DNA of 64,000 nucleotides from Escherichia phage mogra. Both the position numbers and the translations under genes were made by a program. The DNA lies in the sequence record MN850579.1. The stretch is one strand, 5' to 3'. The notes beneath the pieces are model-generated. The model had not been told where the DNA came from. It worked only from the letters and a program-made list of their open reading frames with translations, and searched no databases. Shown here piece after piece: positions 7,644 through 63,503 of this stretch. Position 1 is the first letter of the stretch, and every line of letters begins with the position of its first letter.

Positions 7644-8246
7644 ATGCGAAACCAAAATAATGATATTGACTCAATGTTCGAAGAGTTCCGAGATAAGGTA
7701 AATCCACCTACGTCTTTAGTTGATTCATTACGATATGTTGCAACTGGACGTAAATGGTACTGGTCGTCTTCTTATGAGACCACCGAGAAAACGGCTAGCC
7801 ATAGCAGAAAATCTTTATTAGCCCCAGGTATTATGATTCATGATATCGGAGCTATTGCTAAACTAGTTGCAGACCATGATATTAGATTCACTGATTTCGT
7901 TGCTCCTACGTGGTCTGTTTGTTGTTTAAACACTGAATGGGAATATATCAGCGAACGCTCTGAAGATTATTATGGCTTTAGAGATAAGCTTCTGAGGTCT
8001 AATATGTTTTATATCGATACAGAAGTTCTAGTCGATAATAAAAAATATTACTTTACGTTAATCATCGATTCTGAAACTATGTATGAAGGCAAGCCTTTGC
8101 TTAAGAGAGTTGATGCTTTAAGTGCTATTGATGCGCTTTATGAAACTATGGTTGTTAGTCCTAATTTCACTAATAATTTAATCCTTGAGCAATTTATTAT
8201 GGAATGTAGAGAATATGTCAAAGCCAACCCTATACATGCCAAGTAA
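7644..8246 (+). CDS. hypothetical protein
   Basis: ATG after SD aaaggag; C-terminus carries FIMECR motif. Confidence 0.5.
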   Translation: MRNQNNDIDSMFEEFRDKVNPPTSLVDSLRYVATGRKWYWSSSYETTEKTASHSRKSLLAPGIMIHDIGAIAKLVADHDIRFTDFVAPTWSVCCLNTEWEYISERSEDYYGFRDKLLRSNMFYIDTEVLVDNKKYYFTLIIDSETMYEGKPLLKRVDALSAIDALYETMVVSPNFTNNLILEQFIMECREYVKANPIHAK

Positions 8247-31921: not shown

Positions 31922-32395
31922 ATGTTATTATCAGGCGCAAAATATAAAGAAGAAAAACAAAAATTTTATGATGCACAGAACGGTAAGTGTCCTATTTGCC
32001 ACCGTGAATTAGACCCTGATGTTCAAGGTAACCATCTTGACCACGACCACGAATTAAACGGGCCAAAAGCTGGTAAGGTTCGTGGTTTACTATGTAACCT
32101 GTGCAATGCAGCAGAAGGCCAAATGAAGCATAAGTTCAACCGTTCTGGTCTTAAAGGTCAAAACGTTGATTACCTCGAATGGCTTGAATCTCTTCTTGCT
32201 TATTTGAAACAAGATTATTCTGATAATAATATCCATCCTAATTTTGTTGGAGATAAATCAAAGGAATTTTCTCGTTTAGGAAAAGAGGAAATGATGTCCG
32301 AGATGCTTCAAAGAGGATTTGAATATAATGAATCTGATACTAAAACACAATTAATAGCTTCATTCAAAAAGCAGCTTAGAAAGAGTTTAAAATGA
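31922..32395 (+). CDS. 49: recombination endonuclease VII gp49
   Basis: KCPICHREL..HLDHDHELNGPKAGKVRGLLCNLCN; near-identical to T4 endo VII. Confidence 0.92.
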   Translation: MLLSGAKYKEEKQKFYDAQNGKCPICHRELDPDVQGNHLDHDHELNGPKAGKVRGLLCNLCNAAEGQMKHKFNRSGLKGQNVDYLEWLESLLAYLKQDYSDNNIHPNFVGDKSKEFSRLGKEEMMSEMLQRGFEYNESDTKTQLIASFKKQLRKSLK

Positions 32396-34209
32396 AAATT
32401 GAAAAAGAAATTGAAGGATTAATTTATAAAACTAATAAAGATCTTTTGAACGAGAATGCTAATAAAGATTCTCGTGTTTTTCCAACTCAACGGGACCTTA
32501 TGGCTGGTATTGTGTCTAAGCACATTGCCAAAAATATGGTCCCGTCTTTTATTATGAATGCGCATGAAAGCGGAATCATTCACATGCATGATATTGATTA
32601 TTCTCCTGCTCTTCCGTTTACCAATTGCTGTTTAGTCGATTTAAAGGGGATGCTTGAGAATGGATTTAAATTAGGCAATGCTCAAATTGAAACGCCTAAA
32701 TCTATTGGCGTTGCTACTGCAATTATGGCACAAATTACCGCACAAGTTGCTTCACACCAGTATGGCGGAACTACATTTGCGAATGTCGATAAAGTTCTTT
32801 CTCCTTATGTTAAACGCACATACGCTAAACATATTGAAGATGCAGAAAAATGGCAAATCGCTGATGCGTTGAATTATGCTCAATCCAAAACAGAAAAAGA
32901 TGTCTATGACGCGTTCCAAGCTTATGAATATGAAGTAAATACTCTCTTTAGTTCAAACGGACAAACGCCTTTTGTAACAATTACATTTGGTACGGGAACT
33001 GACTGGACTGAACGAATGATTCAGAAGGCAATTCTTAAAAACCGCATTAAAGGTCTTGGTCGTGATGGAATAACTCCTATTTTTCCTAAACTTGTTATGT
33101 TTGTTGAAGAAGGTGTTAATCTTTATAAAGATGATCCAAACTATGATATTAAACAACTTGCGTTAGAATGTGCAAGCAAAAGAATGTATCCTGACATTAT
33201 TTCGGTTAAGAATAATAAAGCTATTACCGGTTCTTCAGTTCCTGTTTCTCCGATGGGTTGCCGTAGTTTTTTGAGTGTGTGGAAAGATTCGACTGGTAAT
33301 GAAATTCTTGATGGACGTAATAATCTTGGTGTTGTAACACTGAATCTTCCTCGTATCGCATTAGATTCTTATATTGGAACACAGTTCAATGAACAGAAAT
33401 TTGTTGAGCTATTTAACGAACGAATGGACCTGTGTTTTGAAGCCTTGATGTGTAGAATTAGTTCTTTAAAGGGTGTTAAAGCGACTGTTGCTCCTATTCT
33501 TTACCAAGAAGGTGCATTCGGTGTTCGTCTTAAACCTGATGACGATATAATTGAGTTATTTAAAAACGGTAGAAGTTCAGTGTCTTTGGGATACATTGGT
33601 ATTCACGAATTGAATATTCTTGTCGGTCGTGATATTGGGCAAGAAATTTTAACTAAAATGAATGCTCATCTTAAACAGTGGACTGAAAGAACCGGATTTG
33701 CTTTTAGTTTATATTCTACTCCTGCTGAAAACCTTTGTTATCGCTTCTGTAAACTTGATACAGAAAAATATGGAAGTGTAAAGGATGTTACAGATAAAGG
33801 CTGGTACACTAACAGTTTCCATGTTTCAGTAGAAGAAAATATTACTCCGTTTGAAAAAATTTCTCGTGAAGCTCCTTATCATTTCATAGCGACCGGCGGT
33901 CACATTTCTTATGTTGAACTTCCAGATATGAAAAACAATTTAAAGGGGCTTGAGGCCGTCTGGGATTATGCTGCACAACATTTAGATTATTTTGGTGTTA
34001 ATATGCCAGTGGATAAATGTTTTACATGTGGAAGTACCCATGAAATGACTCCTACTGAAAATGGATTTGTTTGTTCAGTTTGCGGAGAAACTGATCCTAA
34101 AAAGATGAACACAATAAGAAGAACATGTGGTTATTTGGGAAATCCGAACGAACGCGGATTTAATCTCGGTAAAAATAAAGAAATCATGCATAGGGTTAAA
34201 CACCAATGA
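32392..34209 (+). CDS. nrdD: anaerobic ribonucleoside-triphosphate reductase NrdD
   Basis: 605 aa; C-terminal glycyl radical motif RRTCGY and CxxC zinc site; uninterrupted (no intron). Confidence 0.93.
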   Translation: MKIEKEIEGLIYKTNKDLLNENANKDSRVFPTQRDLMAGIVSKHIAKNMVPSFIMNAHESGIIHMHDIDYSPALPFTNCCLVDLKGMLENGFKLGNAQIETPKSIGVATAIMAQITAQVASHQYGGTTFANVDKVLSPYVKRTYAKHIEDAEKWQIADALNYAQSKTEKDVYDAFQAYEYEVNTLFSSNGQTPFVTITFGTGTDWTERMIQKAILKNRIKGLGRDGITPIFPKLVMFVEEGVNLYKDDPNYDIKQLALECASKRMYPDIISVKNNKAITGSSVPVSPMGCRSFLSVWKDSTGNEILDGRNNLGVVTLNLPRIALDSYIGTQFNEQKFVELFNERMDLCFEALMCRISSLKGVKATVAPILYQEGAFGVRLKPDDDIIELFKNGRSSVSLGYIGIHELNILVGRDIGQEILTKMNAHLKQWTERTGFAFSLYSTPAENLCYRFCKLDTEKYGSVKDVTDKGWYTNSFHVSVEENITPFEKISREAPYHFIATGGHISYVELPDMKNNLKGLEAVWDYAAQHLDYFGVNMPVDKCFTCGSTHEMTPTENGFVCSVCGETDPKKMNTIRRTCGYLGNPNERGFNLGKNKEIMHRVKHQ

Positions 34210-34676
34210 ATTATGATAGATTTTATCCTTGCGATTTTGTGAATGGCCCTGGATGCAGGGTCGTTCTTTTCGTTACGGGTTGTTTGCATAAATGCGAAGG
34301 GTGTTATAATAAATCAACATGGAATGCTAGAAATGGTATTCCATTCACTGGTGAAACACTAGAACAATTAATTGAATGTTTGAATAATGATTATATAGAA
34401 GGATTAACTATAACCGGAGGTGACCCTCTCTATCCTGATAACCGAGATGTTATTCATTGCATTGTTCAAACAGTAAAAAATCTTTATCCCAATAAAAGCA
34501 TTTGGTTGTGGACAGGATATAAGTTTGAAGATATTAAACAACTAGAAATGCTTAAATATGTTGATGTTATTATTGATGGGAAGTATGAGAAAAATCTTCC
34601 GACCAAAAAGCTGTGGCGAGGATCAGATAATCAGCGGCTTTGGTCAAATACCGATGGGGTGTGGAAACATGATTAA
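34206..34676 (+). CDS. nrdG: anaerobic RNR activating protein NrdG (radical SAM)
   Basis: CLHKCEGC motif; ATGA coupling to nrdD. Confidence 0.88.
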   Translation: MNYDRFYPCDFVNGPGCRVVLFVTGCLHKCEGCYNKSTWNARNGIPFTGETLEQLIECLNNDYIEGLTITGGDPLYPDNRDVIHCIVQTVKNLYPNKSIWLWTGYKFEDIKQLEMLKYVDVIIDGKYEKNLPTKKLWRGSDNQRLWSNTDGVWKHD

Positions 34677-38179: not shown

Positions 38180-38378
38180 CATCTCTAACTACTTAGAAGA
38201 ACCTTTTGACGAAGCAATCCCTTATTTGGTAAAACTGTTGGGTCGTGAATTTAAAATTAATTTTGACATCGACCCTTTGAACCCACATGACGTGTCATTT
38301 TCAATAAATGGGACTCCGGTTGAGTATGAGTTCTGTATTGAAGAGGATGGACGTTTTTATTTTAATTTAATGAGATAA
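38163..38378 (+). CDS. hypothetical protein
   Basis: Overlaps end of gene 55. Confidence 0.4.
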
Positions 38379-38379
38379 T

Positions 38380-38703
38380 ATGACTACCGAGATTATTGAA
38401 AATAAAGAAGCAGAAGATGCAGTAGCTAAAATGCTACAAGAAATCCAAAAGAAAAATGAAGCTGAAGCACGTAAAAAATCCGAAAAGATTCTTAAAAAGA
38501 ATCGTTTTGAACTAAACCGTCTTTATGCTCATGCTCAAGAAGCAGCAATTCAAAACAACTTCGAAGCTTACGAATATGCTATTAAGAAATCTCGGGATAT
38601 TCTACGACAACCATATAATGACAAGTTAATTAAAATCCAGTGGGTTACTACTCGTCAGGCTATTGAGGACATCATTAATGGCGCTAGTTCAAACAAAGTT
38701 TAA
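38380..38703 (+). CDS. hypothetical helical protein
   Basis: 107 aa. Confidence 0.5.
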   Translation: MTTEIIENKEAEDAVAKMLQEIQKKNEAEARKKSEKILKKNRFELNRLYAHAQEAAIQNNFEAYEYAIKKSRDILRQPYNDKLIKIQWVTTRQAIEDIINGASSNKV

Positions 38704-38884
38704 ACGTCTGAAGCTGAACGCAGGGTTCACCATTAAATTGGGTGGTCCTCTTTGTGTTAAAATTTCTGAAAAGGAATATCATGACGGTTCTATTACAGAA
38801 ATTTGTCCGCCTATTGTAAAGGCAGACCCAAAACAACTCGTGTGGGTTGATTCATTTCAAGTTAAGAAATGGTGGAAACAATGA
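38678..38884 (+). CDS. hypothetical protein
   Basis: Internal ATG; overlaps upstream gene. Confidence 0.4.
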   Translation: MALVQTKFKRLKLNAGFTIKLGGPLCVKISEKEYHDGSITEICPPIVKADPKQLVWVDSFQVKKWWKQ

Positions 38885-38923
38885 GAGAAATCGGTTTAGG
38901 TATTTTCTGAGAGGTGCTTATGC

Positions 38924-39097
38924 ATGACGAACATCCCGACTTCTGAAAATTTCGATAAAATCCGTAAAGGCAAAGCAGAAAGAATGAGACGTTTTAAAGA
39001 GTCTTATGATAAAGCTAAAGCCGAAGGAACTATTACATACAAGCCCATTCGATTTAAAAGTTCAAATGAGCCTCTGTACGGTGTACTATGTGGATAG
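38924..39097 (+). CDS. small hypothetical protein (57 aa)
   Basis: SD gaggtg; followed by a terminator. Confidence 0.4.
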   Translation: MTNIPTSENFDKIRKGKAERMRRFKESYDKAKAEGTITYKPIRFKSSNEPLYGVLCG

Positions 39098-39120
39098 GAA
39101 CTCTTCGGAGTTCCTTTTTT
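39097..39120 (+). terminator. rho-independent terminator upstream of gene 47
   Basis: GGAACTC-TTCG-GAGTTCC then T6. Confidence 0.75.
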
Positions 39121-39143
39121 GCTTTATAAACGGATGATAGAAT
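39120..39143 (+). promoter_or_regulatory. candidate middle promoter for genes 47-46
   Basis: TGCTTTA 39120-39126, 11 nt spacer, TAGAAT. Confidence 0.45.
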
Positions 39144-39166
39144 GAATTAACTAATGAGGAAATAAT

Positions 39167-45807: not shown

Positions 45808-48519
45808 ATGAAAGAATTTTACTTAACGGTTGAACAGATTGGTGATTCAATTTTTGAACGTTACATCGATTCTAATGGCCGTGAACGTACTCGTGAAGTA
45901 GAATATAAACCATCACTGTTTGCTCATTGTCCAGAAAGTCAGGCTACGAAATATTTCGATATCTACGGTAAGCCGTGTACTCGTAAGCTGTTCGCTAATA
46001 TGCGTGATGCCTCCCAATGGATTAAACGCATGGAAGATATCGGACTTGAAGCACTTGGCATGGACGATTTCAAATTGGCGTATTTGTCTGACACTTATAA
46101 CTATGAAATCAAATACGACCATACAAAAATTCGTGTGGCTAACTTCGACATCGAAGTAACATCTCCGGATGGGTTCCCTGAGCCGTCACAAGCAAAACAT
46201 CCGATTGATGCTATCACCCATTATGACTCAATTGACGACAGGTTCTACGTATTTGATCTATTGAATTCTCCATATGGTAATGTAGAAGAATGGTCTATTG
46301 AAATCGCTGCTAAGCTTCAAGAACAAGGCGGTGATGAAGTTCCATCTGAAATTATCGATAAAATCATTTATATGCCGTTCGATAACGAAAAAGAATTGTT
46401 GATGGAATATCTCAACTTCTGGCAACAGAAAACTCCTGTCATTTTGACTGGATGGAACGTTGAGTCATTTGATATTCCATATGTGTATAACCGAATCAAG
46501 AATATTTTTGGCGAATCTACTGCGAAACGTTTATCGCCACATCGTAAAACTCGTGTTAAAGTTATCGAAAACATGTATGGTTCTCGTGAAATCATTACAT
46601 TGTTCGGTATCTCTGTTCTTGATTACATTGACCTTTACAAAAAATTCTCTTTTACCAATCAACCGTCGTATTCTCTGGATTACATTTCAGAATTTGAATT
46701 GAACGTTGGTAAACTGAAATATGACGGCCCTATTTCTAAACTTCGTGAAAGCAATCACCAACGATATATTTCTTATAACATTATCGATGTGTATCGTGTA
46801 TTGCAAATTGATGCTAAGCGTCAGTTCATCAACTTGAGTTTGGACATGGGTTATTATGCTAAGATACAGATTCAATCTGTGTTTAGCCCAATTAAAACAT
46901 GGGATGCTATTATTTTTAATAGCCTTAAAGAGCAGAACAAGGTGATTCCACAAGGTCGTTCTCACCCGGTTCAACCTTATCCTGGCGCTTTTGTTAAGGA
47001 ACCTATTCCAAATCGATACAAATATGTAATGAGTTTCGACCTTACATCTCTGTATCCAAGCATCATTCGCCAAGTGAATATTAGCCCAGAAACAATAGCA
47101 GGAACGTTTAAAGTAGCTCCATTACATGATTATATTAACGCAATCGCTGAACGTCCTTCAGATGTGTACAGTTGTTCTCCTAACGGCATGATGTATTATA
47201 AAGACCGTGATGGTGTAGTTCCAACTGAAATCACTAAGGTCTTTAATCAACGTAAAGAACATAAAGGTTACATGCTTGCAGCTCAACGTAATGGTGAAAT
47301 AATTAAAGAGGCATTGCATAATCCTAATCTTTCTGTTGACGAACCATTAGATGTTGATTATCGTTTCGACTTCAGCGATGAGATTAAAGAAAAGATTAAA
47401 AAGTTGTCTGCTAAATCTCTTAATGAAATGTTGTTTAGAGCTCAACGTACTGAAGTTGCAGGTATGACTGCACAAATTAACCGTAAATTGCTCATCAACT
47501 CACTTTATGGTGCACTTGGCAACGTTTGGTTCCGTTATTATGATTTGCGTAATGCTACTGCAATCACAACATTCGGGCAAATGGCTTTACAGTGGATTGA
47601 ACGTAAAGTTAATGAATATCTGAATGAAGTTTGTGGTACAGAAGGTGAAGCTTTCGTTCTTTATGGTGATACAGACTCCATTTACGTATCTGCGGATAAA
47701 ATTATTGATAAGGTTGGTGAATCTAAATTCCGTGATACTAACCATTGGGTAGACTTCTTAGATAAGTTCGCTCGTGAACGTATGGAACCTGCTATTGATA
47801 GAGGTTTCCGTGAAATGTGCGAATACATGAATAATAAGCAACATTTGATGTTCATGGACCGAGAAGCTATTGCTGGCCCTCCGCTCGGTTCTAAAGGTAT
47901 TGGTGGATTCTGGACTGGTAAGAAACGTTATGCATTAAACGTGTGGGATATGGAAGGCACTCGTTATGCTGAGCCTAAACTCAAAATCATGGGTCTAGAG
48001 ACTCAGAAATCTTCGACCCCTAAAGCAGTACAGAAAGCTCTTAAAGAATGTATTCGTCGTATGCTTCAAGAAGGTGAAGAATCATTACAAGAATATTTTA
48101 AAGAGTTTGAAAAAGAATTCCGTCAATTGAATTATATTAGCATCGCGTCGGTATCTTCTGCGAATAACATTGCTAAATATGATGTCGGTGGATTCCCTGG
48201 TCCCAAATGCCCGTTCCATATTCGTGGAATTCTGACGTATAACCGGGCTATCAAAGGTAATATCGATGCACCACAAGTTGTAGAAGGTGAAAAAGTATAT
48301 GTTCTGCCTTTACGTGAAGGAAACCCATTCGGTGATAAATGTATCGCATGGCCTTCTGGCACTGAAATAACAGATTTAATTAAAGACGACGTACTTCATT
48401 GGATGGACTACACTGTTCTCCTTGAGAAGACATTTATTAAACCACTTGAAGGATTCACATCAGCAGCGAAACTCGATTACGAGAAGAAAGCATCTCTGTT
48501 CGATATGTTCGATTTTTGA
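45808..48519 (+). CDS. 43: DNA polymerase gp43 (family B)
   Basis: 903 aa; exo motif FDIEV; pol motifs DxxSLYPS, KxxxNSxYG, YGDTDS; matches recalled RB69 gp43. Confidence 0.97.
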   Translation: MKEFYLTVEQIGDSIFERYIDSNGRERTREVEYKPSLFAHCPESQATKYFDIYGKPCTRKLFANMRDASQWIKRMEDIGLEALGMDDFKLAYLSDTYNYEIKYDHTKIRVANFDIEVTSPDGFPEPSQAKHPIDAITHYDSIDDRFYVFDLLNSPYGNVEEWSIEIAAKLQEQGGDEVPSEIIDKIIYMPFDNEKELLMEYLNFWQQKTPVILTGWNVESFDIPYVYNRIKNIFGESTAKRLSPHRKTRVKVIENMYGSREIITLFGISVLDYIDLYKKFSFTNQPSYSLDYISEFELNVGKLKYDGPISKLRESNHQRYISYNIIDVYRVLQIDAKRQFINLSLDMGYYAKIQIQSVFSPIKTWDAIIFNSLKEQNKVIPQGRSHPVQPYPGAFVKEPIPNRYKYVMSFDLTSLYPSIIRQVNISPETIAGTFKVAPLHDYINAIAERPSDVYSCSPNGMMYYKDRDGVVPTEITKVFNQRKEHKGYMLAAQRNGEIIKEALHNPNLSVDEPLDVDYRFDFSDEIKEKIKKLSAKSLNEMLFRAQRTEVAGMTAQINRKLLINSLYGALGNVWFRYYDLRNATAITTFGQMALQWIERKVNEYLNEVCGTEGEAFVLYGDTDSIYVSADKIIDKVGESKFRDTNHWVDFLDKFARERMEPAIDRGFREMCEYMNNKQHLMFMDREAIAGPPLGSKGIGGFWTGKKRYALNVWDMEGTRYAEPKLKIMGLETQKSSTPKAVQKALKECIRRMLQEGEESLQEYFKEFEKEFRQLNYISIASVSSANNIAKYDVGGFPGPKCPFHIRGILTYNRAIKGNIDAPQVVEGEKVYVLPLREGNPFGDKCIAWPSGTEITDLIKDDVLHWMDYTVLLEKTFIKPLEGFTSAAKLDYEKKASLFDMFDF

Positions 48520-48559
48520 TATAATGCCAAGGACGGCCAACTAATTAAATGAGAGAAAT

Positions 48560-49195
48560 ATGAAAACTACACCAATCACTATCGCTATTGACGCAATTGT
48601 AAAACAAGCTTCATCTCTTGCCACTATGGCTAAAGTAATTAGTCAAAACCATGCTCGTTATAATGCTATTCTAGAAACTCTTCGACGCCCTGGACTTAGT
48701 AATTATGAAAGCCGGGTAATTATTACAGGTGTTGGTAAGAATGCTAATATCGCAACTAAAGCTTCCGAGACTTTTGCTTCACTAGGTATTCCTAGCATGT
48801 ATTTGAATACCGGGCATTATTCTCATGGTGACGCAGGATTTATTGCACCTAATGATGTATTAGTTCACATCAGTCGTTCTGGTAAGACTGAAGAAATGAT
48901 AGGTGTTGCTAAACATCTTCGTATGATTCGTCCTCAGGTTAAACAGATTCTGTTACATTGTAACCCTGACATTCCACAAGAATACGAAGCTCTTTTTGAT
49001 TATACGTTCTGTACCGGTATCGCGGTAGAAGTTGACGAGAACTCTTTAGCTCCGACAATGTCTACTACATTGTTGTTAGCGCTTATCGATACGTTCGCTA
49101 TCAACCTTTCGTCTGAACGTGGATTTACCTCTAATGATTTCCTTAAGTTCCATCCAGGCGGTGCACTAGGTGCCATGTTACGAGGCGAACAATGA
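48560..49195 (+). CDS. SIS-domain sugar-phosphate isomerase, arabinose-5-phosphate isomerase-like
   Basis: ITGVGKNANIATKASETFASLGIP and ISRSGKTEE resemble KdsD/GutQ-type SIS motifs. Confidence 0.7.
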   Translation: MKTTPITIAIDAIVKQASSLATMAKVISQNHARYNAILETLRRPGLSNYESRVIITGVGKNANIATKASETFASLGIPSMYLNTGHYSHGDAGFIAPNDVLVHISRSGKTEEMIGVAKHLRMIRPQVKQILLHCNPDIPQEYEALFDYTFCTGIAVEVDENSLAPTMSTTLLLALIDTFAINLSSERGFTSNDFLKFHPGGALGAMLRGEQ

Positions 49196-49335
49196 AAGCA
49201 ATAACAATAGGACTTTTACTATTGATGCTTGCCATGACTATCTACTGGAGCTTAACGGCTCCGGTAATGATTCCAACACTTGTAATTGGATGGATTATGA
49301 TTGGACTACAAGCAAAGTATGAATGCTTTAACTAG
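49192..49335 (+). CDS. small membrane peptide (47 aa)
   Basis: ATGA overlap with SIS gene; one TM helix; not in ORF track. Confidence 0.35.
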   Translation: MKAITIGLLLLMLAMTIYWSLTAPVMIPTLVIGWIMIGLQAKYECFN

Positions 49336-49376
49336 AATAGTGTACAATACTCCTACTTACCAATGAGGACTTCAAC

Positions 49377-51062
49377 ATGAAAAAAGCTGTTATTCTTGGT
49401 GCTGGACTGGCAACTCGTTTGTATCCAATAACGCATCATATTCCTAAGGTGCTTGTGAACTATAAACAAGACACTATTCTGAGCAATTTGTATACAATTT
49501 ATTCTGACCTTGGCGCAGATGAAATTATTGTAGTAGTTCATTCAAAATTTGCTGAAACTGTTCGAGCTTATTGTGAGCAAGAAGGGTTCAATGTGACTAT
49601 TCGTACAGTTGATGAAGCGTATGGTTCTGCTTATGCTCTTGCTAAATTACACAAAGATTTAGACGGTCATAATGTAATTGTTAACTGGTGCGATATTATT
49701 CCTGATTTTGGTTCATGGTCTTGGAATGTTAACGCAATCTATGTTAAGGGTGATGAATGTCGATATAATTTCGACGGTGAAAATATCACTAACGTAGGTT
49801 CAACAGGTGGTAATGTTGTAGGAATTTATCAGTTCAAAGACTGGGAATTCTATATGGGTTCTACTGATGAGGAAATTCATGAATACTGCAAAGGACGTGA
49901 TTTCGTAGAATTCCTTTACAGCGCCGCATTCAATAAATCAGAGCTTATGAATCTAATTGATTTAGGTGATATGCCTAAACTTGAAAAGGCTCATGAAGTT
50001 CGTGAACTTAATCGTAGTTTTAACGCAGTTGAAATTGGTGAAGAAACTGTAACTAAATTCGCATTAACCGAACAGGGTCGAGCTCTTCAGAAAGATGAGA
50101 TTTCATGGTATTTGAAAGTGAAATCAGATTCAGTTCCTCAGTTAGTTTCTGTTAATGAAAATAACTTTGAAATGGAACGCATTAAAGGTAAGCCAGCATT
50201 TGAATATATTAAATCCAAATCAAGTCTTGCTCGTCCACAAATTGTTGATGCAATTTTAGATGCACTGAAATTCAGCACAGACACTTATTTTGTAAGTCCT
50301 GAAACTGTTCGTCGTGATTTCACTAAAGAATTCTATACGAAAGTTATTGATCGTTGTGAAAGCATTCAACCATTGATTGATTCATTTGGTAAAATCACGC
50401 ATGTGAACTACACTAAGATTGGACGTCTGAAGCCAATGCTGAAACAAGCTTTAGAACACCTTATTCGTTATCATAACCGTTCTCAGGGACAGTACTCTGT
50501 TATTCATGGCGACCCGAACTTCAGTAATACTATGATTACTGATAATGGCGAAGTCAAGTTTATCGACCCTCGTGGATATTTTGGTGAAACCAAGATTTAC
50601 GGGCCGAAATTGTACGACGAAGCTAAAGTGCTTTACGCTGTTTCAGGTTATGATGAATTCAACGCTAATCCGACCTGGGGGCAGTTTACTATTGATGAAA
50701 CAACTTGTAATGTGACTATTAACATCAATCCATTAGTTTACAAATATGGAAAGATGAGTTCGTTTAACGAGTATCATCATTTGGCAGTGGCAATTATCTG
50801 GATTGCATTAGGTGGTTATTTCAAGAATAATCCACTTAAAGCGGTAGCCGCATATTATAAAGGTATGGAACTTCTGACTAAGCAATTACGTAACATGGGC
50901 CGTGTACTTCAGGACGGCTCTATTAGTTATGACGTAGCAGAACCTGTAACGGCTACTCTGATTACAAAAAATCCTGGTAAGTGGGTACTAACTGATAAAG
51001 AAACTGGTGTTTCCTATCGTCCAATAGGTGGCGATATCACTCATCAATGGGAACGAATCTAA
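49377..51062 (+). CDS. bifunctional sugar-1-phosphate nucleotidyltransferase / APH-type kinase
   Basis: N-terminal ILGAGLATRL (GxGxR NTP-transferase motif); C-terminal HGDPNFSNTMI...IDPRGYFG (choline/aminoglycoside-kinase-like). Confidence 0.7.
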   Translation: MKKAVILGAGLATRLYPITHHIPKVLVNYKQDTILSNLYTIYSDLGADEIIVVVHSKFAETVRAYCEQEGFNVTIRTVDEAYGSAYALAKLHKDLDGHNVIVNWCDIIPDFGSWSWNVNAIYVKGDECRYNFDGENITNVGSTGGNVVGIYQFKDWEFYMGSTDEEIHEYCKGRDFVEFLYSAAFNKSELMNLIDLGDMPKLEKAHEVRELNRSFNAVEIGEETVTKFALTEQGRALQKDEISWYLKVKSDSVPQLVSVNENNFEMERIKGKPAFEYIKSKSSLARPQIVDAILDALKFSTDTYFVSPETVRRDFTKEFYTKVIDRCESIQPLIDSFGKITHVNYTKIGRLKPMLKQALEHLIRYHNRSQGQYSVIHGDPNFSNTMITDNGEVKFIDPRGYFGETKIYGPKLYDEAKVLYAVSGYDEFNANPTWGQFTIDETTCNVTININPLVYKYGKMSSFNEYHHLAVAIIWIALGGYFKNNPLKAVAAYYKGMELLTKQLRNMGRVLQDGSISYDVAEPVTATLITKNPGKWVLTDKETGVSYRPIGGDITHQWERI

Positions 51063-51448
51063 TGCACCGCGTAGAAAACATGCTTAATCTTTGTTTTGAT
51101 GTCGATGATTGTATAACAGAGTGGAATAACAATCGTGATTACGTGAACTTCAAGCCAGACGTCGAAATGGTGTCTGCCATTAATGCCCTGTATGATGCAG
51201 GGCATACCATAACGCTTTACACTGCTCGCGGTATGAAGTCAGTCGGTCCTGGTCGTATAGCAATTGACATTCTCCCAAGTCTGATTCAGAACTTGGCAAA
51301 CATTGGCTTGAAGTACCATAATTTGCTAACACATAAACCAGTATATGATTGGATTATCGACGACAAAGCTATGCGTCCTGACGAATTCAAAGCTCTTATG
51401 AATAAAGGCGAATTCGAAACATTTAAATCATATAAACCGAATCTATAA
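51062..51448 (+). CDS. HAD-superfamily phosphatase (small, capless)
   Basis: Motif I FDVDDCIT, motif II ITLYTAR, Lys and WIIDDKA motif IV; TAATG coupling to upstream gene. Confidence 0.6.
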   Translation: MHRVENMLNLCFDVDDCITEWNNNRDYVNFKPDVEMVSAINALYDAGHTITLYTARGMKSVGPGRIAIDILPSLIQNLANIGLKYHNLLTHKPVYDWIIDDKAMRPDEFKALMNKGEFETFKSYKPNL

Positions 51449-51508
51449 TAATTTAAGTAAGACCTGCAAAAAAAAACCATCGCATCAATTAACGCGAGAT
51501 GCAAAAAA

Positions 51509-52669
51509 ATGAATACTTTTAAAATCGGAACGAATTTTGATTTAGCTCTTCTTGATAAAATCGTAGAGCTCAATAAAACTTATCCTAATAGCTTGATAAA
51601 TGAAGTATACGGCTCTACAAGAGAAATGGCTTTTGTAGCAGCCAGACCTGATTTTAGGCTTCCTGACATTGACAAAAAGATGTTAGAAGATTATGTTAAA
51701 CGTTGTAACGAATTAGGTATTTGCTTTAACTATACACTCAACACGATAAATCCTGGTTCAAAAAGAGAACTAGTTGAGTGGAAGAAGAAAGCTATTCAGG
51801 ATTATGTTCAGTATCTTTGGTCAATAGGCGTATGGCGTATTACTATCGCTAACCCTGTTGTTATGGAAATTGTTCGTGAAGTCAATAAAGACATTGAGAT
51901 TGAAGTTTCAACAATTCTACATGTCGATGCTGTAACTCAAATCAAATACTTGCATGACCAGTATAATATCAAAAAGGTCTGCTGTGGAATTCATAAGAAC
52001 CGTTCAGTTTCTTTCCTGAAGCGTGCAGCAGAGTTTTGCAATAAGAACAATATAATATTTGAAGTTCTTGTAAATGAGTTCTGTTCTAATGCTGGTAAAG
52101 GGTATACAACACATTGTAGCTATCGTGACTCTTGCTATATTTTCCATAGTACTGATGTTACAGCTGATGATGCTAAATCCTTAAACGGATATCCAATGCA
52201 GCACTGTATTAAAGCTCGTGATACAGACCCATTTAACTGGTTGAGAACTCGTTTTGTTCGTCCTCAAGATTTGAAACTTTATAATGATATCGGTATCACT
52301 CAATTCAAAGTTTCAGGACGTACAGGTAGCACAGACTACATTTTGAAAGTTCTTGAAGCATACGCTTCTGAAAAGTTTGAAGGTAATTTGTTAGAACTGT
52401 GGAAGCCTTTAGAGACTATTTTCACTCTTGAAAACGAAACTGAGTTTTCACATACAGTAAATATTGAAACCTCTTTGTTAGATGGCTTTTTAGAAAAAAG
52501 GTGGTTCAGACATCCAGATTTCGATTGTGCTAATGAAATCTGCGGGACGACGTGTACATATTGTGAAAGATATTATAAACGTCAATTATCTAAAAACGGG
52601 TTAGCAGAAAACTCTATATCTATTATTGATATAACTAACTCTGATGACGCTTTGAGGTACCCGGAATGA
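51509..52669 (+). CDS. peptidase U32-family-like protein (family includes O2-independent hydroxylases)
   Basis: EVYGS, FVAARPDF..LEDYVKRCNELGICFNYTLN, NEFCSNAGKG..HCSY Cys-rich signature and FKVSGRTGS (compare KIEGR) resemble U32 family; by eye only. Confidence 0.35.
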   Translation: MNTFKIGTNFDLALLDKIVELNKTYPNSLINEVYGSTREMAFVAARPDFRLPDIDKKMLEDYVKRCNELGICFNYTLNTINPGSKRELVEWKKKAIQDYVQYLWSIGVWRITIANPVVMEIVREVNKDIEIEVSTILHVDAVTQIKYLHDQYNIKKVCCGIHKNRSVSFLKRAAEFCNKNNIIFEVLVNEFCSNAGKGYTTHCSYRDSCYIFHSTDVTADDAKSLNGYPMQHCIKARDTDPFNWLRTRFVRPQDLKLYNDIGITQFKVSGRTGSTDYILKVLEAYASEKFEGNLLELWKPLETIFTLENETEFSHTVNIETSLLDGFLEKRWFRHPDFDCANEICGTTCTYCERYYKRQLSKNGLAENSISIIDITNSDDALRYPE

Positions 52670-52905
52670 TTTCTAGAAAAACTTTTAACCACCGACTTAA
52701 TGAAGAGATTTTGACTATGAAACTGAACACTAATGAACAAATTCTTAAAAAGGCCCTGATGGGCCTGTTTGAAACTAAAGCGGCTAAAGTGATTAAAGAA
52801 CCTGTTCAATTGGAATACTACGCTGATGCATTTCTTCATAGTGTTCTTGGAAGTATCGATGCTGAATCTTTACGTTATATCAACATTGTCAAGAAATTCA
52901 AATAA
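52666..52905 (+). CDS. hypothetical protein
   Basis: ATGA overlap with U32-like gene. Confidence 0.5.
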   Translation: MISRKTFNHRLNEEILTMKLNTNEQILKKALMGLFETKAAKVIKEPVQLEYYADAFLHSVLGSIDAESLRYINIVKKFK

Positions 52906-52947
52906 GCTTTACGAATTGAGTATATAATAAATTGTATTGAGGTAAAC

Positions 52948-53664
52948 ATGGGAAAACATAACACAATGAAATATATCAAAGCCGCAGATTTTCAAACCGC
53001 ATTTAAAGCAGTCAATCGTGAAATTTTAGAAAACCCGGAATTCGTAACTGATTCTCGTATTGGACGTTGTAATGAAATTGGGTCTATGACAGTAGTTGTT
53101 GACACTCCATCATCATTCAAAATGACCGACCCACGTATTAACCGCATCTCTTATGAATATGCCGAAGACTTCTGGAAGTTTATGATTTCCGGTGGTACCA
53201 ACGCAGAAGAAGCGTTTAAGGCATATCCTAATGTCGCTAAATTTATTTCTAAACCAAAATCAGATGTTTTGCCGGCGAACTTCAACACTTTCTATGGTCC
53301 TCGCATTGCGGCCCAATTACCAGCTCTTCTAAAAGAACTTAAAGAGAAGCCTAACTCTCGAAGAGTTGTGTTCCAAATTCTAGAAAGTTCTGATCAGGCT
53401 TTGCTTGATTCGGACGAAACGCTTGAATATCCATGTACTGACTCAGTGACTTATTATATTCGTGATGGTAAGCTTTATACCCACTGTCATATGCGTTCTC
53501 AGAACTGTGCTGTTGTTATGCAGTTGGATTTTTATCTCCAAGGAAAATTACTTCATTATATCGCTAACGAATGTGGTGTAGAAGTTGGTGATTATACTCA
53601 TACCATGGTAAGTGCCCATGTGTTTGAACGTGATTTTGATTATGTTAAAGGATTCCTTGACTAA
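52948..53664 (+). CDS. 42: dCMP hydroxymethylase gp42 (thymidylate-synthase fold)
   Basis: TS-family motifs PNSRRVVFQ and EYPCTDSVTYY (catalytic Cys); position as T4 gene 42. Confidence 0.8.
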   Translation: MGKHNTMKYIKAADFQTAFKAVNREILENPEFVTDSRIGRCNEIGSMTVVVDTPSSFKMTDPRINRISYEYAEDFWKFMISGGTNAEEAFKAYPNVAKFISKPKSDVLPANFNTFYGPRIAAQLPALLKELKEKPNSRRVVFQILESSDQALLDSDETLEYPCTDSVTYYIRDGKLYTHCHMRSQNCAVVMQLDFYLQGKLLHYIANECGVEVGDYTHTMVSAHVFERDFDYVKGFLD

Positions 53665-54563
53665 TGGCTATTTTCCGCGTACCAATCTTGAGTATGCGGT
53701 CTTATGAAACTGGACAGTATGCTATCCTTAAGGATGGCAACTTCCAACTTCATTTGCACCGTGCTAATCCAGGCGATGTGATTACATATCCACGTAATGC
53801 ATCTGATATTAAAGAATGTGAACGTCTTTTCCCAGAATTTAAGTTTGTTCCATTATGGTATAAAGATAACGCGTATAACACTCGTAAATATTTCTGGTCC
53901 GAAAATGAATTTGTGGTTGATTCATTAATTGCTTATTATGATTGTGATTTTCTAATCACAGATATCACTGGATATAACGGCGCTTTTGATGTAGAATTCA
54001 ATTTCAATATCACGGCAGACCCTAATAAACCACGTTTTTATATTGGCGAATTCTTAAAAACCGATATGTTGTCAGTTAATAGTTCACTTCAAACTACTGT
54101 GTTGAATGAACGTCAAAAAGAAGTGCTGGTTAACGCAGGTGCAGATGGTAATAAGATTATCGTAACTCAGAAAGTTATACGTCCTTCCATCATGCAGCGT
54201 CTTGTAGGTGATTTGGCTCCTATTCATCTAGATGGTATTTTTCATCCATTTCGAATTAGTGACCCGTGCTATCGTTTTGAACAAGTGGTTGAATGTGCAA
54301 TTCAATTAGGCCAACCGCTTTATATAACCGATCCAAATAATAGCTTCGACAGAAATAAGTATCCTGAAGAAGCGCTGATTCGAATTTTTAAACCAACTAA
54401 AACTGAGTACTATCAAATTCTTAAAGGACGTCCGAAGATTCAATATTTCGAAAATCCTGAAGAAGTATTTCATCCAGGTCTTGGTGAGTTCATCTACTTT
54501 AATGCTTTAATTTCTTCGCCGTATAATATACCTAAATACGAAGATGTCGTAATCGAGGAATAA
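53664..54563 (+). CDS. hypothetical protein in the beta-gt position; candidate DNA sugar transferase
   Basis: TAATG coupling to gene 42; 299 aa; no resemblance to recalled T4 beta-gt. Confidence 0.5.
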   Translation: MAIFRVPILSMRSYETGQYAILKDGNFQLHLHRANPGDVITYPRNASDIKECERLFPEFKFVPLWYKDNAYNTRKYFWSENEFVVDSLIAYYDCDFLITDITGYNGAFDVEFNFNITADPNKPRFYIGEFLKTDMLSVNSSLQTTVLNERQKEVLVNAGADGNKIIVTQKVIRPSIMQRLVGDLAPIHLDGIFHPFRISDPCYRFEQVVECAIQLGQPLYITDPNNSFDRNKYPEEALIRIFKPTKTEYYQILKGRPKIQYFENPEEVFHPGLGEFIYFNALISSPYNIPKYEDVVIEE

Positions 54564-54564
54564 A

Positions 54565-55113
54565 ATGGCTAAAATTATTTTAGTAGATGGCCCGGATAAT
54601 GCCGGTAAAACAACTTTCATTAATGACATAATGGAAATTAGTGAAAGATATGTAAAGATTGATTTCCCTAAACGAACAGTTGATGGACGTTTCGATGTTA
54701 AGTCTCGAAATGAAGTTGGTTGTTTCGAAACGATGTTGAATTATTTAGACCCTACTAAGATTTATCTGTTAGACCGTGGATATATTAGTAACTGGGTTTA
54801 TGGACGTATTCGACAAGATGCGGACTCTGTTCTTGATGTTTATGAGCAGGATTATGTTCGTCTTTGCCAAAACCATGATGTGTTCACAATTATTTTAACA
54901 CGTAACGAAATGACTGAAAGTTTTGAAGACGACCTTATTACTTTGTCTTCATTCGGTTTTAATACAGTCATTTCACATTTTGAAGAGTTTGCAATTCATA
55001 ACAAAATCCAAACGTATCAATTACTTAATCATGATGGTGCTAACAAAGTTATAGGATTTAATGCAAGCGAACGTAATGGTTTGATTACAGAAATCATCAA
55101 ATGGGCTCGTTAA
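54565..55113 (+). CDS. P-loop kinase (nucleotide or sugar kinase-like)
   Basis: Walker A VDGPDNAGKTT; LDRGY (DRY-like) motif; 182 aa. Confidence 0.6.
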   Translation: MAKIILVDGPDNAGKTTFINDIMEISERYVKIDFPKRTVDGRFDVKSRNEVGCFETMLNYLDPTKIYLLDRGYISNWVYGRIRQDADSVLDVYEQDYVRLCQNHDVFTIILTRNEMTESFEDDLITLSSFGFNTVISHFEEFAIHNKIQTYQLLNHDGANKVIGFNASERNGLITEIIKWAR

Positions 55114-55133
55114 GAGCCATTTAAAGTTTTAAA

Positions 55134-55158
55134 TGCTGTATAACCCTTAGTATATAAT
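55134..55158 (+). promoter_or_regulatory. candidate middle promoter for uvsX
   Basis: MotA-box variant TGCTGTA, 12 nt spacer, TATAAT 55153. Confidence 0.4.
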
Positions 55159-55211
55159 CGTCTTATCTTTTAAACATGAGTAAAATATAATGATGCCTAT
55201 GGAAAAATACA

Positions 55212-56384
55212 ATGTCTGATTTAAAATCTCGTCTGATTAAAGCTTCTACTTCTAAAATGACTGCAGACTTGACTAAGTCTAAGCTGTTTAATAATCGTGA
55301 TGAAGTCCCTACTCGTATTCCGATGTTGAATATCGCACTAGGTGGTGCTCTGAATGCAGGATTGCAATCAGGCTTGACTATTTTTGCTGCACCTTCTAAA
55401 CATTTTAAAACATTGTTTGGACTGACCATGGTTGCAGCATATATGAAGAAATATAAAGATGCAATTTGTTTGTTCTATGATTCGGAATTTGGTGCTTCAG
55501 AATCTTATTTTCGATCAATGGGTGTTGATTTAGACCGAGTAGTTCATACTCCGATTCAATCTGTCGAACAACTTAAAGTTGATATGACTAATCAGCTTGA
55601 CGCGATTGAACGCGGCGATAAAGTTATTATCTTTATCGATTCAATCGGTAATACTGCATCTAAGAAAGAAACCGAAGATGCGTTGAACGAGAAAGTTGTA
55701 GGTGATATGTCTCGTGCTAAGGCACTTAAATCTCTTTTCCGTATTGTGACTCCTTATCTGACTATTAAAGATATTCCATGTGTTGCAATCAACCATACAG
55801 CAATGGAAATTGGCGGATTGTATCCTAAAGAGATTATGGGCGGCGGTACAGGTATTCTTTACTCGGCTAACACTGTATTCTTTATCTCTAAACGTCAGGT
55901 TAAAGATGGCACTGAATTGACCGGTTATGACTTCACGTTGAAAGCAGAAAAATCTCGCACAGTTAAAGAGAAATCTACTTTCCCAATCACAGTTAATTTT
56001 GATGGTGGTATCGACCCATTCAGTGGCTTGTTAGAAATGGCAACTGAAATTGGATTTGTTGTTAAGCCTAAAGCCGGTTGGTATGCTCGTGAATTCCTTG
56101 ACGAAGAAACAGGCGAAATGATTCGTGAAGAGAAATCGTGGCGTGCTAAAGCTACTGATTGTGTAGAATTCTGGGGACCGTTGTTTAAACACAAACCTTT
56201 CCGAGATGCAATTGAAACTAAATATAAACTAGGTGCTATCTCTTCTATTAAAGAAGTTGATGACGCTGTTAACGACCTTATTAATTGCAAAGCAACAACT
56301 AAAGTTCCTGTTAAAACTTCTGATGCTCCGTCTGCAGCAGATATAGAAAACGACCTTGACGAAATGGAAGATTTCGATGAATAA
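55212..56384 (+). CDS. uvsX: recombinase UvsX (RecA-like)
   Basis: 390 aa; P-loop FAAPSKHFKT; T4 synteny. Confidence 0.93.
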   Translation: MSDLKSRLIKASTSKMTADLTKSKLFNNRDEVPTRIPMLNIALGGALNAGLQSGLTIFAAPSKHFKTLFGLTMVAAYMKKYKDAICLFYDSEFGASESYFRSMGVDLDRVVHTPIQSVEQLKVDMTNQLDAIERGDKVIIFIDSIGNTASKKETEDALNEKVVGDMSRAKALKSLFRIVTPYLTIKDIPCVAINHTAMEIGGLYPKEIMGGGTGILYSANTVFFISKRQVKDGTELTGYDFTLKAEKSRTVKEKSTFPITVNFDGGIDPFSGLLEMATEIGFVVKPKAGWYAREFLDEETGEMIREEKSWRAKATDCVEFWGPLFKHKPFRDAIETKYKLGAISSIKEVDDAVNDLINCKATTKVPVKTSDAPSAADIENDLDEMEDFDE

Positions 56385-62892: not shown

Positions 62893-62981
62893 AATATCTC
62901 CTTAGTTACCTATTATTTATTACGCTTTATAAAATTAATGGTAGAATTAAACTCTCTTATACTGAATTGAAAGGAAAAATA

Positions 62982-63503
62982 ATGGCGCACTTTAATGAAT
63001 GTTCACAACTTATTTCTGGTGTTGATAAAGCAGAAGAAGCTTATTTTAATGCTCTGATTCACGAAGATAAAGACCCACTTCAGGTAATGCTTGATATGCA
63101 GAAATCTTTACAGGTTCGTCTGGCAAATGACAAGCCTGAACATAACAAACATCCTGATGAATTGGCTACTGCTGGTGATGTTGTTGATTGGCTGCGTAAT
63201 CAGAAAGATTATATTGATGATGAATTCCGTGAACTGTTGACTTCACTTGGTGGTATGAGCAATGGTGAAAAAGCCGCCAGCAGTGTATGGAAGCCTTGGA
63301 AAGCACAACATGCTGAATATCGAAATCGTCGTATCGATGAACTGTCTCCTGAAGACCAGCTTGAAATTAAATTTGAGATGATTGATATTCTTCATTTCGT
63401 TCTGAATATGTTCCAGGGTCTTGGTCTTACAGCAGAAGAAATCTTTAAACTTTACTACTTGAAAAACCAACACAACTTTGAACGCCAGGATAATGGTTAC
63501 TGA
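62982..63503 (+). CDS. 56: dCTPase-dUTPase gp56 (MazG-like)
   Basis: MAHFNEC..DPLQVMLDMQ..YYLKNQHNFERQDNGY matches recalled T4 gp56. Confidence 0.85.
   Translation: MAHFNECSQLISGVDKAEEAYFNALIHEDKDPLQVMLDMQKSLQVRLANDKPEHNKHPDELATAGDVVDWLRNQKDYIDDEFRELLTSLGGMSNGEKAASSVWKPWKAQHAEYRNRRIDELSPEDQLEIKFEMIDILHFVLNMFQGLGLTAEEIFKLYYLKNQHNFERQDNGY

Follow-up and report, generated by a model that had tools for sequence, protein, structure and literature searches.

A probable arabinosyl-5-hydroxycytosine DNA cluster in Escherichia phage mogra and a candidate function for its U32-family protein

The region spanning positions 48560 to 55113 of a 64,000-nucleotide stretch of DNA from Escherichia phage mogra (sequence record MN850579.1; the whole stretch is hereafter called the window) lies between the genes for DNA polymerase and UvsX. 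It very probably represents the arabinosyl-5-hydroxycytosine DNA cluster of Mosigviruses of the RB69, HY126 and Bas46 type, wherein three branches concern the base, the sugar and the transfer. This cluster is already known, and the gene for a U32-family protein is the only one that remains without an established role. Based on comparative analyses, we propose that this protein may be an iron-sulfur (Fe-S), prephenate-dependent, O2-independent cytosine C5 hydroxylase that acts at the nucleotide or DNA level, a reading to which we give slightly less than an even chance.

The cluster and its modified base

Nine open reading frames (ORFs) on the + strand occupy the region, which is bounded by DNA polymerase (45808 to 48519) and UvsX (55212 to 56384). 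They are listed below together with two genes located elsewhere in the window.

48560 to 49195, + strand: single-domain SIS arabinose-5-phosphate isomerase, 211 amino acids (aa), homolog of RB69 gp55; assigned by homology
49192 to 49335, + strand: hydrophobic membrane ORF, 47 aa (orf47); PHROG 3610 (4.5e-27), 4-nt overlap with the SIS stop codon
49377 to 51062, + strand: nucleotidyltransferase-kinase fusion of the AfhE type, 561 aa; NTP_transferase match, kinase motifs and identity to the HY126 protein
51047 to 51448, + strand: small HAD-type phosphatase of the AfhF type, 133 aa; identity to PDB 9iqw, TIGR01689 match
51509 to 52669, + strand: U32-family TIM-barrel protein, 386 aa; Pfam Peptidase_U32 match and predicted structure
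52666 to 52905, + strand: ORF of 79 aa (orf79); 4-nt overlap with the U32 stop codon, in the slot held by chorismate mutase in other genera
52948 to 53664, + strand: thymidylate synthase (TS)-superfamily 5-hydroxy-dCMP synthase, 238 aa; Pfam Thymidylat_synt (2.3e-15) and signature residues
53664 to 54563, + strand: GT-B-fold glycosyltransferase (GT), putative first DNA arabinosyltransferase, 299 aa, homolog of RB69 gp46:47; predicted structure
54565 to 55113, + strand: P-loop thymidylate-kinase-like nucleotide kinase, 182 aa, homolog of RB69 gp45; PHROG 761 (5.7e-45)
1227 to 1961, + strand: gp1-type dNMP kinase; PHROG 139 (1.7e-59)
62967 to 63503, + strand: gp56-type dCTP pyrophosphatase; PHROG 173 (1.7e-45)

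The genome is T4-like and is read opposite to the T4 map, such that the clamp loader, regA, polymerase, the nine ORFs, uvsX, gp40 and gp41 follow one another. The polymerase sequence is, we presume, that of RB69. The GC content is even over the region (34–40%). Among the matches listed by megablast, Mosigvirus genomes align with the full length of the region at 97.8 to 98.5% DNA identity, with coverage of at least 80% in 151 records. The order of the genes is that of HY126 and of Bas46, in which the GenBank annotation reads ‘UDP-arabinose biosynthesis’, and the proteins are 96.6 to 100% identical to HY126 proteins and to PDB entries 9iqc and 9iqw. There is no material difference in genes or order from the clusters of RB69, HY126, Bas46, Bas47 and NP, except that the fusion and GT genes are split in the RB69 record and are intact single ORFs in the window. 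Nothing in the sequence speaks against the cluster assignment.

An earlier, sequence-only reading of this DNA had re-derived a pathway that was already solved experimentally in 2025 and 2026, and thus it brought no new biology, but its pathway logic was sound. He 2026 and Mahler 2025 are also said to count among the publications on the cluster. Arabinose in RB69 DNA was described by Thomas et al. (2018), who flagged the polymerase–uvsX module as a likely source of UDP-arabinose. Virion DNA in which 5-O-arabinosyl-cytosine replaces cytosine has been shown for RB69, NP and Bas46. A transposon-mutagenesis preprint holds no essentiality data on Bas46 genes.

The TS homolog takes the place that gene 42 has in T4. 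As judged from its residues, it is an O2- and flavin-dependent 5-hydroxy-dCMP synthase and not a hydroxymethylase. When aligned by MAFFT with E. coli ThyA and T4 gp42, the protein retains the catalytic cysteine and exhibits the changes L143E, D169N and N177D in ThyA numbering. It is 24.8% identical to T4 gp42, which keeps D169, whereas 233 of its 238 residues (∼98%) are identical to PDB 9iqc, the HY126 enzyme that was crystallized with flavin (PMC13326640). The combination of asparagine at ThyA position 169 with N177D and L143E is a predictive signature of 5-hydroxy-dCMP synthases (Lee et al. 2026, PMC13326640). According to the same study, the TS homolog of RB69 (gp48) binds flavin and yields 5-hydroxy-dCMP with oxygen taken from O2, as demonstrated by 18O incorporation, and the 5-hydroxycytosine of RB69 DNA bears one or two arabinoses, joined to C5 through an ether (PMC13326640). 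The same bases occur in Mosigvirus NP according to Readshaw et al. 2026 (PMC13390438), and both that study and Lee et al. 2026 (PMC13326640) regard the earlier assignment of 5-hydroxymethylcytosine (hmC) as erroneous. The signature residues and the ∼98% identity to PDB 9iqc therefore indicate that the base is arabinosyl-5-hydroxycytosine and not arabinosyl-hmC.

The sequence-only reading had taken the gene 42 product for a dCMP hydroxymethylase and hmC for the acceptor base, with arabinosyl-hmC as reported for RB69, and neither claim survives. A true gp42 enzyme with phage-made arabinose on hmC would fit the gene 42 position and the thymidylate synthase family, and was proposed by Thomas et al. 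(2018). Set against this are the low identity to T4 gp42 and the asparagine where that protein has aspartate, the near identity to the flavin-bound HY126 enzyme, the 18O-labeled product of RB69 gp48, and the verdict of both later papers (PMC13326640, PMC13390438) on the hmC assignment. This alternative is refuted for close relatives, and we regard it as highly improbable for the window. Positional gene 42 homologs that have asparagine at ThyA position 169 are better annotated as 5-hydroxy-dCMP synthases.

In the base branch, the gp56-type dCTPase would supply dCMP and keep unmodified dCTP from phage DNA, the TS homolog would hydroxylate dCMP at C5 with flavin and O2, and the gp1-type kinase together with host enzymes would convert 5-hydroxy-dCMP to the triphosphate, which the polymerase would then incorporate. 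The presence of gp1 and gp56, which had been claimed earlier, is borne out by the two genes listed last above, and the gp1-type kinase of RB69 phosphorylates 5-hydroxy-dCMP (PMC13326640). This branch has been shown for the ∼98%-identical RB69 and HY126 homologs, and we infer it for phage mogra from that identity and from the signature residues.

The sugar and transfer branches

The sugar branch would begin with the SIS protein, whose predicted conversion of ribulose-5-phosphate to arabinose-5-phosphate is suggested by homology. The protein matches Pfam SIS (9.2e-10; 38.9 bits against a cutoff of 25), and also matches the KpsF/GutQ model TIGR00393 (8.5e-32) and KdsD (2.8e-30) over the SIS part only and under their full-length cutoffs. 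Unlike KdsD, it carries no CBS pair. Further matches are to PHROG 5670 (2.6e-116) and to the single-domain putative phosphosugar isomerase of PDB 3etn (E-value 1e-24), which Lee et al. 2026 treat as an arabinose-5-phosphate isomerase (PMC13326640).

The kinase half of the fusion would then form arabinose-1,5-bisphosphate from arabinose-5-phosphate, the HAD phosphatase would take off the 5-phosphate, and the nucleotidyltransferase half of the fusion would yield UDP-arabinofuranose. The N terminus of the fusion (approximately aa 1–200) corresponds to a sugar-1-phosphate nucleotidyltransferase (NTP_transferase, 8.2e-10, aa 3–99; 39.1 bits against a cutoff of 21.2), and the C terminus (approximately aa 211–517) is APH/choline-kinase-like, with Pfam matches only below threshold (aa 344–409; Fructosamin_kin, 17.1 bits against 22.4). 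An HxDxxxxN...D motif (H377, D379, N384 and D397) is invariant across six genera, as is a GxGxR...PK motif. The fusion matches PHROG 4098 over its full length and is 96.6% identical to the HY126 protein. Residues 5 to 133 of the HAD protein are 100% identical to the HY126 phosphatase of PDB 9iqw. Although a Pfam search with the HAD protein gave no match, TIGR01689 (4.3e-13) and PDB 1xpj (5e-10) were recovered. Of the four families that the sequence-only reading had named, SIS and NTP_transferase thus exceed their Pfam cutoffs, the APH-type kinase stays below threshold, and HAD is recognized through TIGR01689 instead of Pfam.

According to Lee et al. 2026 (PMC13326640), He et al. 2026 rebuilt the sugar branch in vitro from HY126 proteins. 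In that account, AfhE of HY126 acts as an arabinose-5-phosphate 1-kinase and as a UDP-arabinose pyrophosphorylase, and AfhF is an Mg-dependent phosphatase that converts arabinose-1,5-bisphosphate to arabinose-1-phosphate. The kinase, phosphatase and pyrophosphorylase steps are therefore reported as shown for the HY126 proteins, and by sequence identity they would hold for the window. The order recounted there for AfhE and AfhF is the one proposed by the sequence-only reading, which ran from ribulose-5-phosphate through arabinose-5-phosphate, arabinose-1,5-bisphosphate and arabinose-1-phosphate to NDP-arabinose. Likewise, its view of the block as a phage sugar-nucleotide pathway that serves DNA modification agrees with the family matches and with the 96.6% and 100% identity to HY126 proteins.

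The same reading had recognized the logic of ADP-heptose synthesis built from nonorthologous families, and this holds as well. The pathway of GmhA, HldE and GmhB likewise combines an isomerase, an anomeric kinase, a distal phosphatase and a nucleotidyltransferase, and also fuses kinase to nucleotidyltransferase. In the window, however, the isomerase is of the KpsF/GutQ type and not GmhA, the kinase is APH/choline-kinase-like and not PfkB, and the phosphatase is of the small 1xpj/EcbF type; no GmhA, PfkB or HldE model is found among the Pfam and NCBIfam matches of the cluster. HldE joins a PfkB kinase to an adenylyltransferase of the cytidylyltransferase type, and its domain order is the reverse of that of the window fusion.

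These family relationships could also be read as those of auxiliary metabolic genes that provide KDO, capsule or heptose precursors for the host envelope. The best matches are indeed KdsD/KpsF isomerases, the ‘capsule biosynthesis phosphatase’ TIGR01689 and GlmU/RmlA-like nucleotidyltransferases, and several GenBank records are annotated in this manner. In every genus examined, however, the genes accompany the 5-hydroxy-dCMP synthase and the GT-B transferase between polymerase and uvsX; arabinosylated cytosine is present in the DNA of phages that bear the cluster; and the HY126 enzymes are reported to yield UDP-arabinose (PMC13326640). A role in the envelope is accordingly the least probable of the alternatives weighed in this study.

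For the transfer branch, the 299-aa ORF has no sequence-profile match, and a sequence search of the PDB was empty. A structural model built with 47 homologs (pLDDT 95.1) shows a GT-B glycosyltransferase fold. The gene adjoins that of the 5-hydroxy-dCMP synthase in the slot occupied by beta-gt in T4, and its RB69 homolog gp46:47 is a candidate first arabinosyltransferase (PMC13326640). Judged by its fold, the enzyme would place the first arabinose onto the 5-hydroxyl of cytosine in DNA, and a second transferase, encoded outside the window near rIIA, would add the next arabinose. The sequence-only reading had found no transferase in the block, which this assignment corrects; the ORF in the beta-gt slot can be annotated as the transferase. 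The 182-aa kinase that follows has a weak TIGR00041 match, and it accompanies the cluster in phage JS98, in Thanatos and in the phages of Acinetobacter.

In the equivalent interval of T4, gene 42 is preceded only by imm.1 and imm and is followed by beta-gt and segA. A tblastn search of the entire 64 kb with the T4 proteins recovered no homolog of alpha-gt or beta-gt, in agreement with the earlier statement that both are missing. The best match (E-value 0.016, 7731 to 7910) was rejected as an alpha-gt homolog and attributed to chance, as it falls in a 207-aa ORF without GT features. The related claim that the T4 glucosyltransferase loci hold unrelated small ORFs is true of the 55–47 interval (38180 to 39166), where three small ORFs have no assigned function, but not of the 42–uvsX interval, which holds the GT-B protein and the thymidylate-kinase-like protein.

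The cluster and the T4 glucosyl-hmC system are alike in dCTP exclusion, in the modification of dCMP by a TS homolog, in incorporation followed by GT-B glycosylation on DNA, and in their chromosomal neighborhood between gene 43 and uvsX. T4 employs folate-dependent hydroxymethylation and transfers glucose from host UDP-glucose by alpha-gt and beta-gt, whereas the Mosigvirus cluster places a hydroxyl directly on C5 by means of flavin and O2, makes its own sugar, and encodes no sequence homologs of either transferase.

A possible O2-independent hydroxylase of the U32 family

The 5-hydroxy-dCMP synthase depends on O2, although the hosts of these phages are gut bacteria and the phages themselves encode an anaerobic ribonucleotide reductase. 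In the window, the reductase NrdD and its activase NrdG are encoded at 32392 to 34676, and thus the phage is equipped for replication without oxygen. If the U32 protein is a hydroxylase, this would explain how DNA stays modified when oxygen is absent. Such a protein would be the first O2-independent, prephenate-dependent hydroxylase that acts on DNA or a DNA precursor, extending this chemistry from RNA and quinones, and it would offer a soluble protein, convenient for assays, from a family that has so far defied reconstitution in vitro. The earlier gene list for the block was incomplete, in that the U32 gene and two small ORFs within the same coordinates had been left out.

The U32 protein matches Pfam Peptidase_U32 (PF01136) with 42.2 bits (cutoff 22.4). 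A sequence search of the PDB was empty, and the AF2 model (pLDDT 92.6) finds 5d88, a U32 protein, as its best PDB match by Foldseek. Using hhalign, the phage U32 family aligns with RlhA at a probability of 82% (E-value 1e-5, 203 columns), compared with 15% for TrhP and 5% for UbiU as single-sequence templates, making RlhA the best of the three E. coli paralogs compared. Among U32 proteins, roles are known only for RlhA, which is needed for 5-hydroxycytidine 2501 of 23S rRNA, TrhP, needed for 5-hydroxyuridine in tRNA, and UbiU/UbiV, needed for anaerobic ubiquinone hydroxylation. All are genetically implicated in O2-independent hydroxylation that depends on Fe-S and prephenate; for UbiU/V, the donated oxygen was shown to come from prephenate.

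The phage sequence C203-x5-C209-YI.H aligns on C-x6-C-YI.H of RlhA, which includes the first two motif cysteines. Across 51 U32 homologs, down to 47% identity, nine cysteines do not vary, and these include C192, C233 and the C-terminal residues C340, C345, C349 and C352 (CX4CX3CX2C). Identity to the proteins of Serratia, Enterobacter, Klebsiella, Proteus and Shewanella phages is the highest in the cluster (81–87%, compared with 69–84% for the synthase, 44–72% for the fusion and 48–68% for the GT; UvsX, 64–88%), and dN/dS relative to Bas46 is 0.056.

In 56 phage records, spanning at least 10 host genera, the gene for a small AroQ chorismate mutase (CM) lies beside those for U32 and TS, with adjacency confirmed in annotated rows and inspected loci. 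Its Pfam CM_2 match is 2.4e-10 in Entb_45 and 1.2e-13 in contig L022. Invariant residues occur at alignment positions equated with the catalytic residues of the E. coli enzyme, which we take to be Arg11, Arg28, Lys39, Glu52, Ser84 and Gln88. Three arrangements are observed, namely U32–CM before the synthase gene, U32–CM after the kinase gene (Thanatos), and CM–U32 (L022). The T4-like phages that encode it have hosts in Enterobacter, Klebsiella, Serratia, Yersinia, Edwardsiella, Proteus, Providencia, Morganella and Shewanella, and the gene usually stands just before that of the synthase. The loci are as follows.

L004, 6158 to 6397: chorismate mutase
L011, 5884 to 6228: chorismate mutase
L012, 5986 to 6231: chorismate mutase
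L009, 5983 to 6240: chorismate mutase
L022, 3469 to 3732: chorismate mutase

Distant U32 homologs (48–58% identity) are present in unrelated and often very large phage-like contigs, where their neighbors include genes for dCMP deaminase, Tmk-like kinases, UDG-PolIII alpha, NT5C and dNK, with no arabinose genes. No TS homolog is found within the 7 to 8 kb flanks inspected, and Pfam and PHROG scans of unannotated neighbors were mostly empty. In an 80-kb phage-like metagenomic contig (L020, 7001 to 9804), a U32 gene encoding a 55%-identical protein is directly followed by genes for a Bacillus-type DAHP synthase (NCBIfam 2.6e-70; the KDO8P synthase model gives 2.9e-17) and an NAD-dependent epimerase, and is preceded by two UDG-family genes and a nucleotide kinase gene. 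DAHP synthase is the first enzyme of the shikimate pathway.

A 61-kb phage-like contig (L021, 4777 to 13179) presents a U32 gene, then a gene for a TET-associated glycosyltransferase (TAGT) with a significant Pfam match, then a gene of the dCTP deaminase/dUTPase family (dUTPase and DCD domains). A DXD glycosyltransferase is encoded upstream of U32, and a UDP-galactopyranose mutase ∼4 kb further downstream. No TS or TET gene occurs within the 15 kb inspected. This locus may encode a pathway to glycosylated hydroxypyrimidines that relies solely on U32. In two megaphage-like contigs, one of 466 kb (L013, 7447 to 9086; L016, 7504 to 9083), a DnaE-type polymerase is fused or adjacent to UDG, and the U32 gene directly follows that of dCMP deaminase, overlapping it in L013 and lying ∼70 nt downstream in L016. 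This position hints that the U32 substrate there may be a nucleotide of uracil and not of cytosine.

U32 is absent from all 57 Acinetobacter phage records that carry the fusion, and their host is a strict aerobe; the listed phages that carry U32 have hosts among Enterobacterales or Shewanella. The pairing with chorismate mutase and DAHP synthase points to prephenate. Together with the roles of the family, the cysteines, the conservation, the distant neighbors and the host range, this pairing suggests an O2-independent C5 hydroxylase. Such an enzyme would furnish 5-hydroxycytosine at O2 levels that do not suffice for the flavoenzyme, as a backup or alternative to the TS-like enzyme. The Mosigvirus protein would use prephenate of the host, whereas in most other genera prephenate would come from the adjacent phage chorismate mutase. 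In the unrelated phages without a TS homolog in the inspected flanks, the hydroxyl handle of glycosylated pyrimidines would, in anaerobic habitats, be installed by U32 alone.

Several observations weigh against this proposal. No U32 hydroxylase has been reconstituted in vitro so far, the hhalign match to RlhA is moderate, and those to TrhP and UbiU are poor. The CX6CX15CX3/4C motif, which binds a 4Fe-4S cluster, is retained in part, as the phage pattern C192-x10-C203-x5-C209-x23-C233 does not correspond one-to-one at positions three and four. Mosigviruses have lost the chorismate mutase, and Dhakaviruses such as JS98, which infect E. coli, have the core cluster without U32 or chorismate mutase, and thus U32 is accessory. 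Other authors have labeled RB69 gp50, the U32 protein, a ‘sugar or heterocycle reductase’ from its fold match to 5d88 (PMC13326640), and an ‘epimerase’ is among the cluster genes named by Readshaw et al. (PMC13390438). No link of U32, prephenate and phage DNA was found in the open-access literature. The alternative that the chorismate mutase feeds CmoA/CmoX-type carboxymethylation (PMC12783734) was also considered and set aside, as no ORF of the cluster has a methyltransferase-type match in Pfam, NCBIfam or PHROG.

The two published labels would fit a protein of the sugar branch, such as an arabinose or sugar-nucleotide epimerase or reductase, or alternatively a redox helper that serves as an Fe-S donor and reduces the flavin of the synthase. 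The flavoenzyme does need its flavin in reduced form and a gene for a flavin reductase is absent from the vicinity, and in L020 the NAD-dependent epimerase gene is located two genes downstream of U32. However, to our knowledge no U32 member acts on sugars. The UDP-arabinofuranose pathway is complete without U32 in JS98, in Acinetobacter phages and, as reported in PMC13326640, in the HY126 assays. A sugar or redox role also leaves the repeated pairing with chorismate mutase or DAHP synthase unexplained, and distant homologs lie beside genes for dCMP deaminase, dNK, NT5C and TAGT where arabinose genes are lacking. We therefore consider such a role unlikely, at roughly one chance in four. Far less probable still is a collagenase-like peptidase unrelated to DNA modification, which is what the Pfam family name and many GenBank ‘peptidase’ annotations imply, since the characterized bacterial U32 members bind Fe-S and belong to hydroxylation pathways, the nine cysteines are invariant, and the gene always occurs among nucleotide or DNA-modification genes.

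The candidate hydroxylase shares with RlhA, TrhP, UbiU and UbiV the U32 domain and fold and many conserved cysteines, RlhA being the member linked to 5-hydroxycytidine and hence to the same chemistry on the base, and the pairing with genes for enzymes of the prephenate pathway in phages parallels the genetic need of these proteins for pheA/tyrA. It differs in that identity is only 15 to 23%, the cysteine pattern is altered and includes the additional C-terminal CX4CX3CX2C, and it would presumably act on a deoxynucleotide or DNA, in place of the rRNA, tRNA or quinone of those proteins. A further likeness is to phage TET/JBP and TAGT systems, wherein an oxidizing enzyme makes a hydroxyl handle at the C5 substituent of cytosine, which the product of a neighboring GT gene then glycosylates; the gene for one distant U32 homolog lies directly upstream of a TAGT-family gene. 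TET enzymes, in contrast, depend on O2 and 2-oxoglutarate and act on 5-methylcytosine in DNA, and the cluster has no TET gene.

Gene spacing, small ORFs and related loci

Four pairs of genes overlap, namely SIS and orf47 (4 nt), fusion and HAD (16 nt), U32 and orf79 (4 nt), and TS and GT (1 nt), and the GT and kinase genes are spaced by 1 nt. The remaining gaps measure 40 to 60 nt. The block had been described as translationally coupled; with gaps of this size at the other junctions, coupling of the block is only partial. A scan of positions 48300 to 55400 was uninformative on operon structure, as 23 promoter-like sites were found against 25.7 expected, and five terminator-like sites against 3.0 expected. 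A promoter-like site, TTTAAA-16-TATAAT, is located at 51422 to 51449 by the 60-nt gap 5′ of the U32 gene, within a scan that overall is at chance level. This site could be the source of a separate U32–orf79 transcript.

The LC53 homolog of orf47 is annotated with transmembrane segments, and the dN/dS of orf47 itself relative to Bas46 is 0.27. The second small ORF, orf79, has no Pfam or NCBIfam match even at an E-value of 10. Given its slot, it was considered as a diverged AroQ chorismate mutase (CM_2) and rejected, as no profile matches it, BLASTP against the Entb_45 chorismate mutase gives an E-value of 6.9, and Yersinia and Serratia 92A1 phages have an orf79 homolog and a chorismate mutase together. 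With 87 to 97% identity and a dN/dS of 0.33, against 0.056 for U32 (both relative to Bas46), orf79 evolves faster than its neighbors. It is intact in the window, is frameshifted in HY126 (L005, 6158 to 6400), and gives two-piece matches in at least five other Mosigvirus genomes, and it may be decaying within Mosigvirus.

Two related loci show further variation. In the Shewanella phage Thanatos-1 (L009, 6305 to 8705), uvsX is annotated as two pieces with a gene for a GIY-YIG Seg-like homing endonuclease between them. Dhakaviruses (phage JS98, L018, 5062 to 10175) have a compact cluster in the order short SIS-like ORF, fusion, phosphatase, kinase, synthase and GT, and retain imm beside the polymerase gene.

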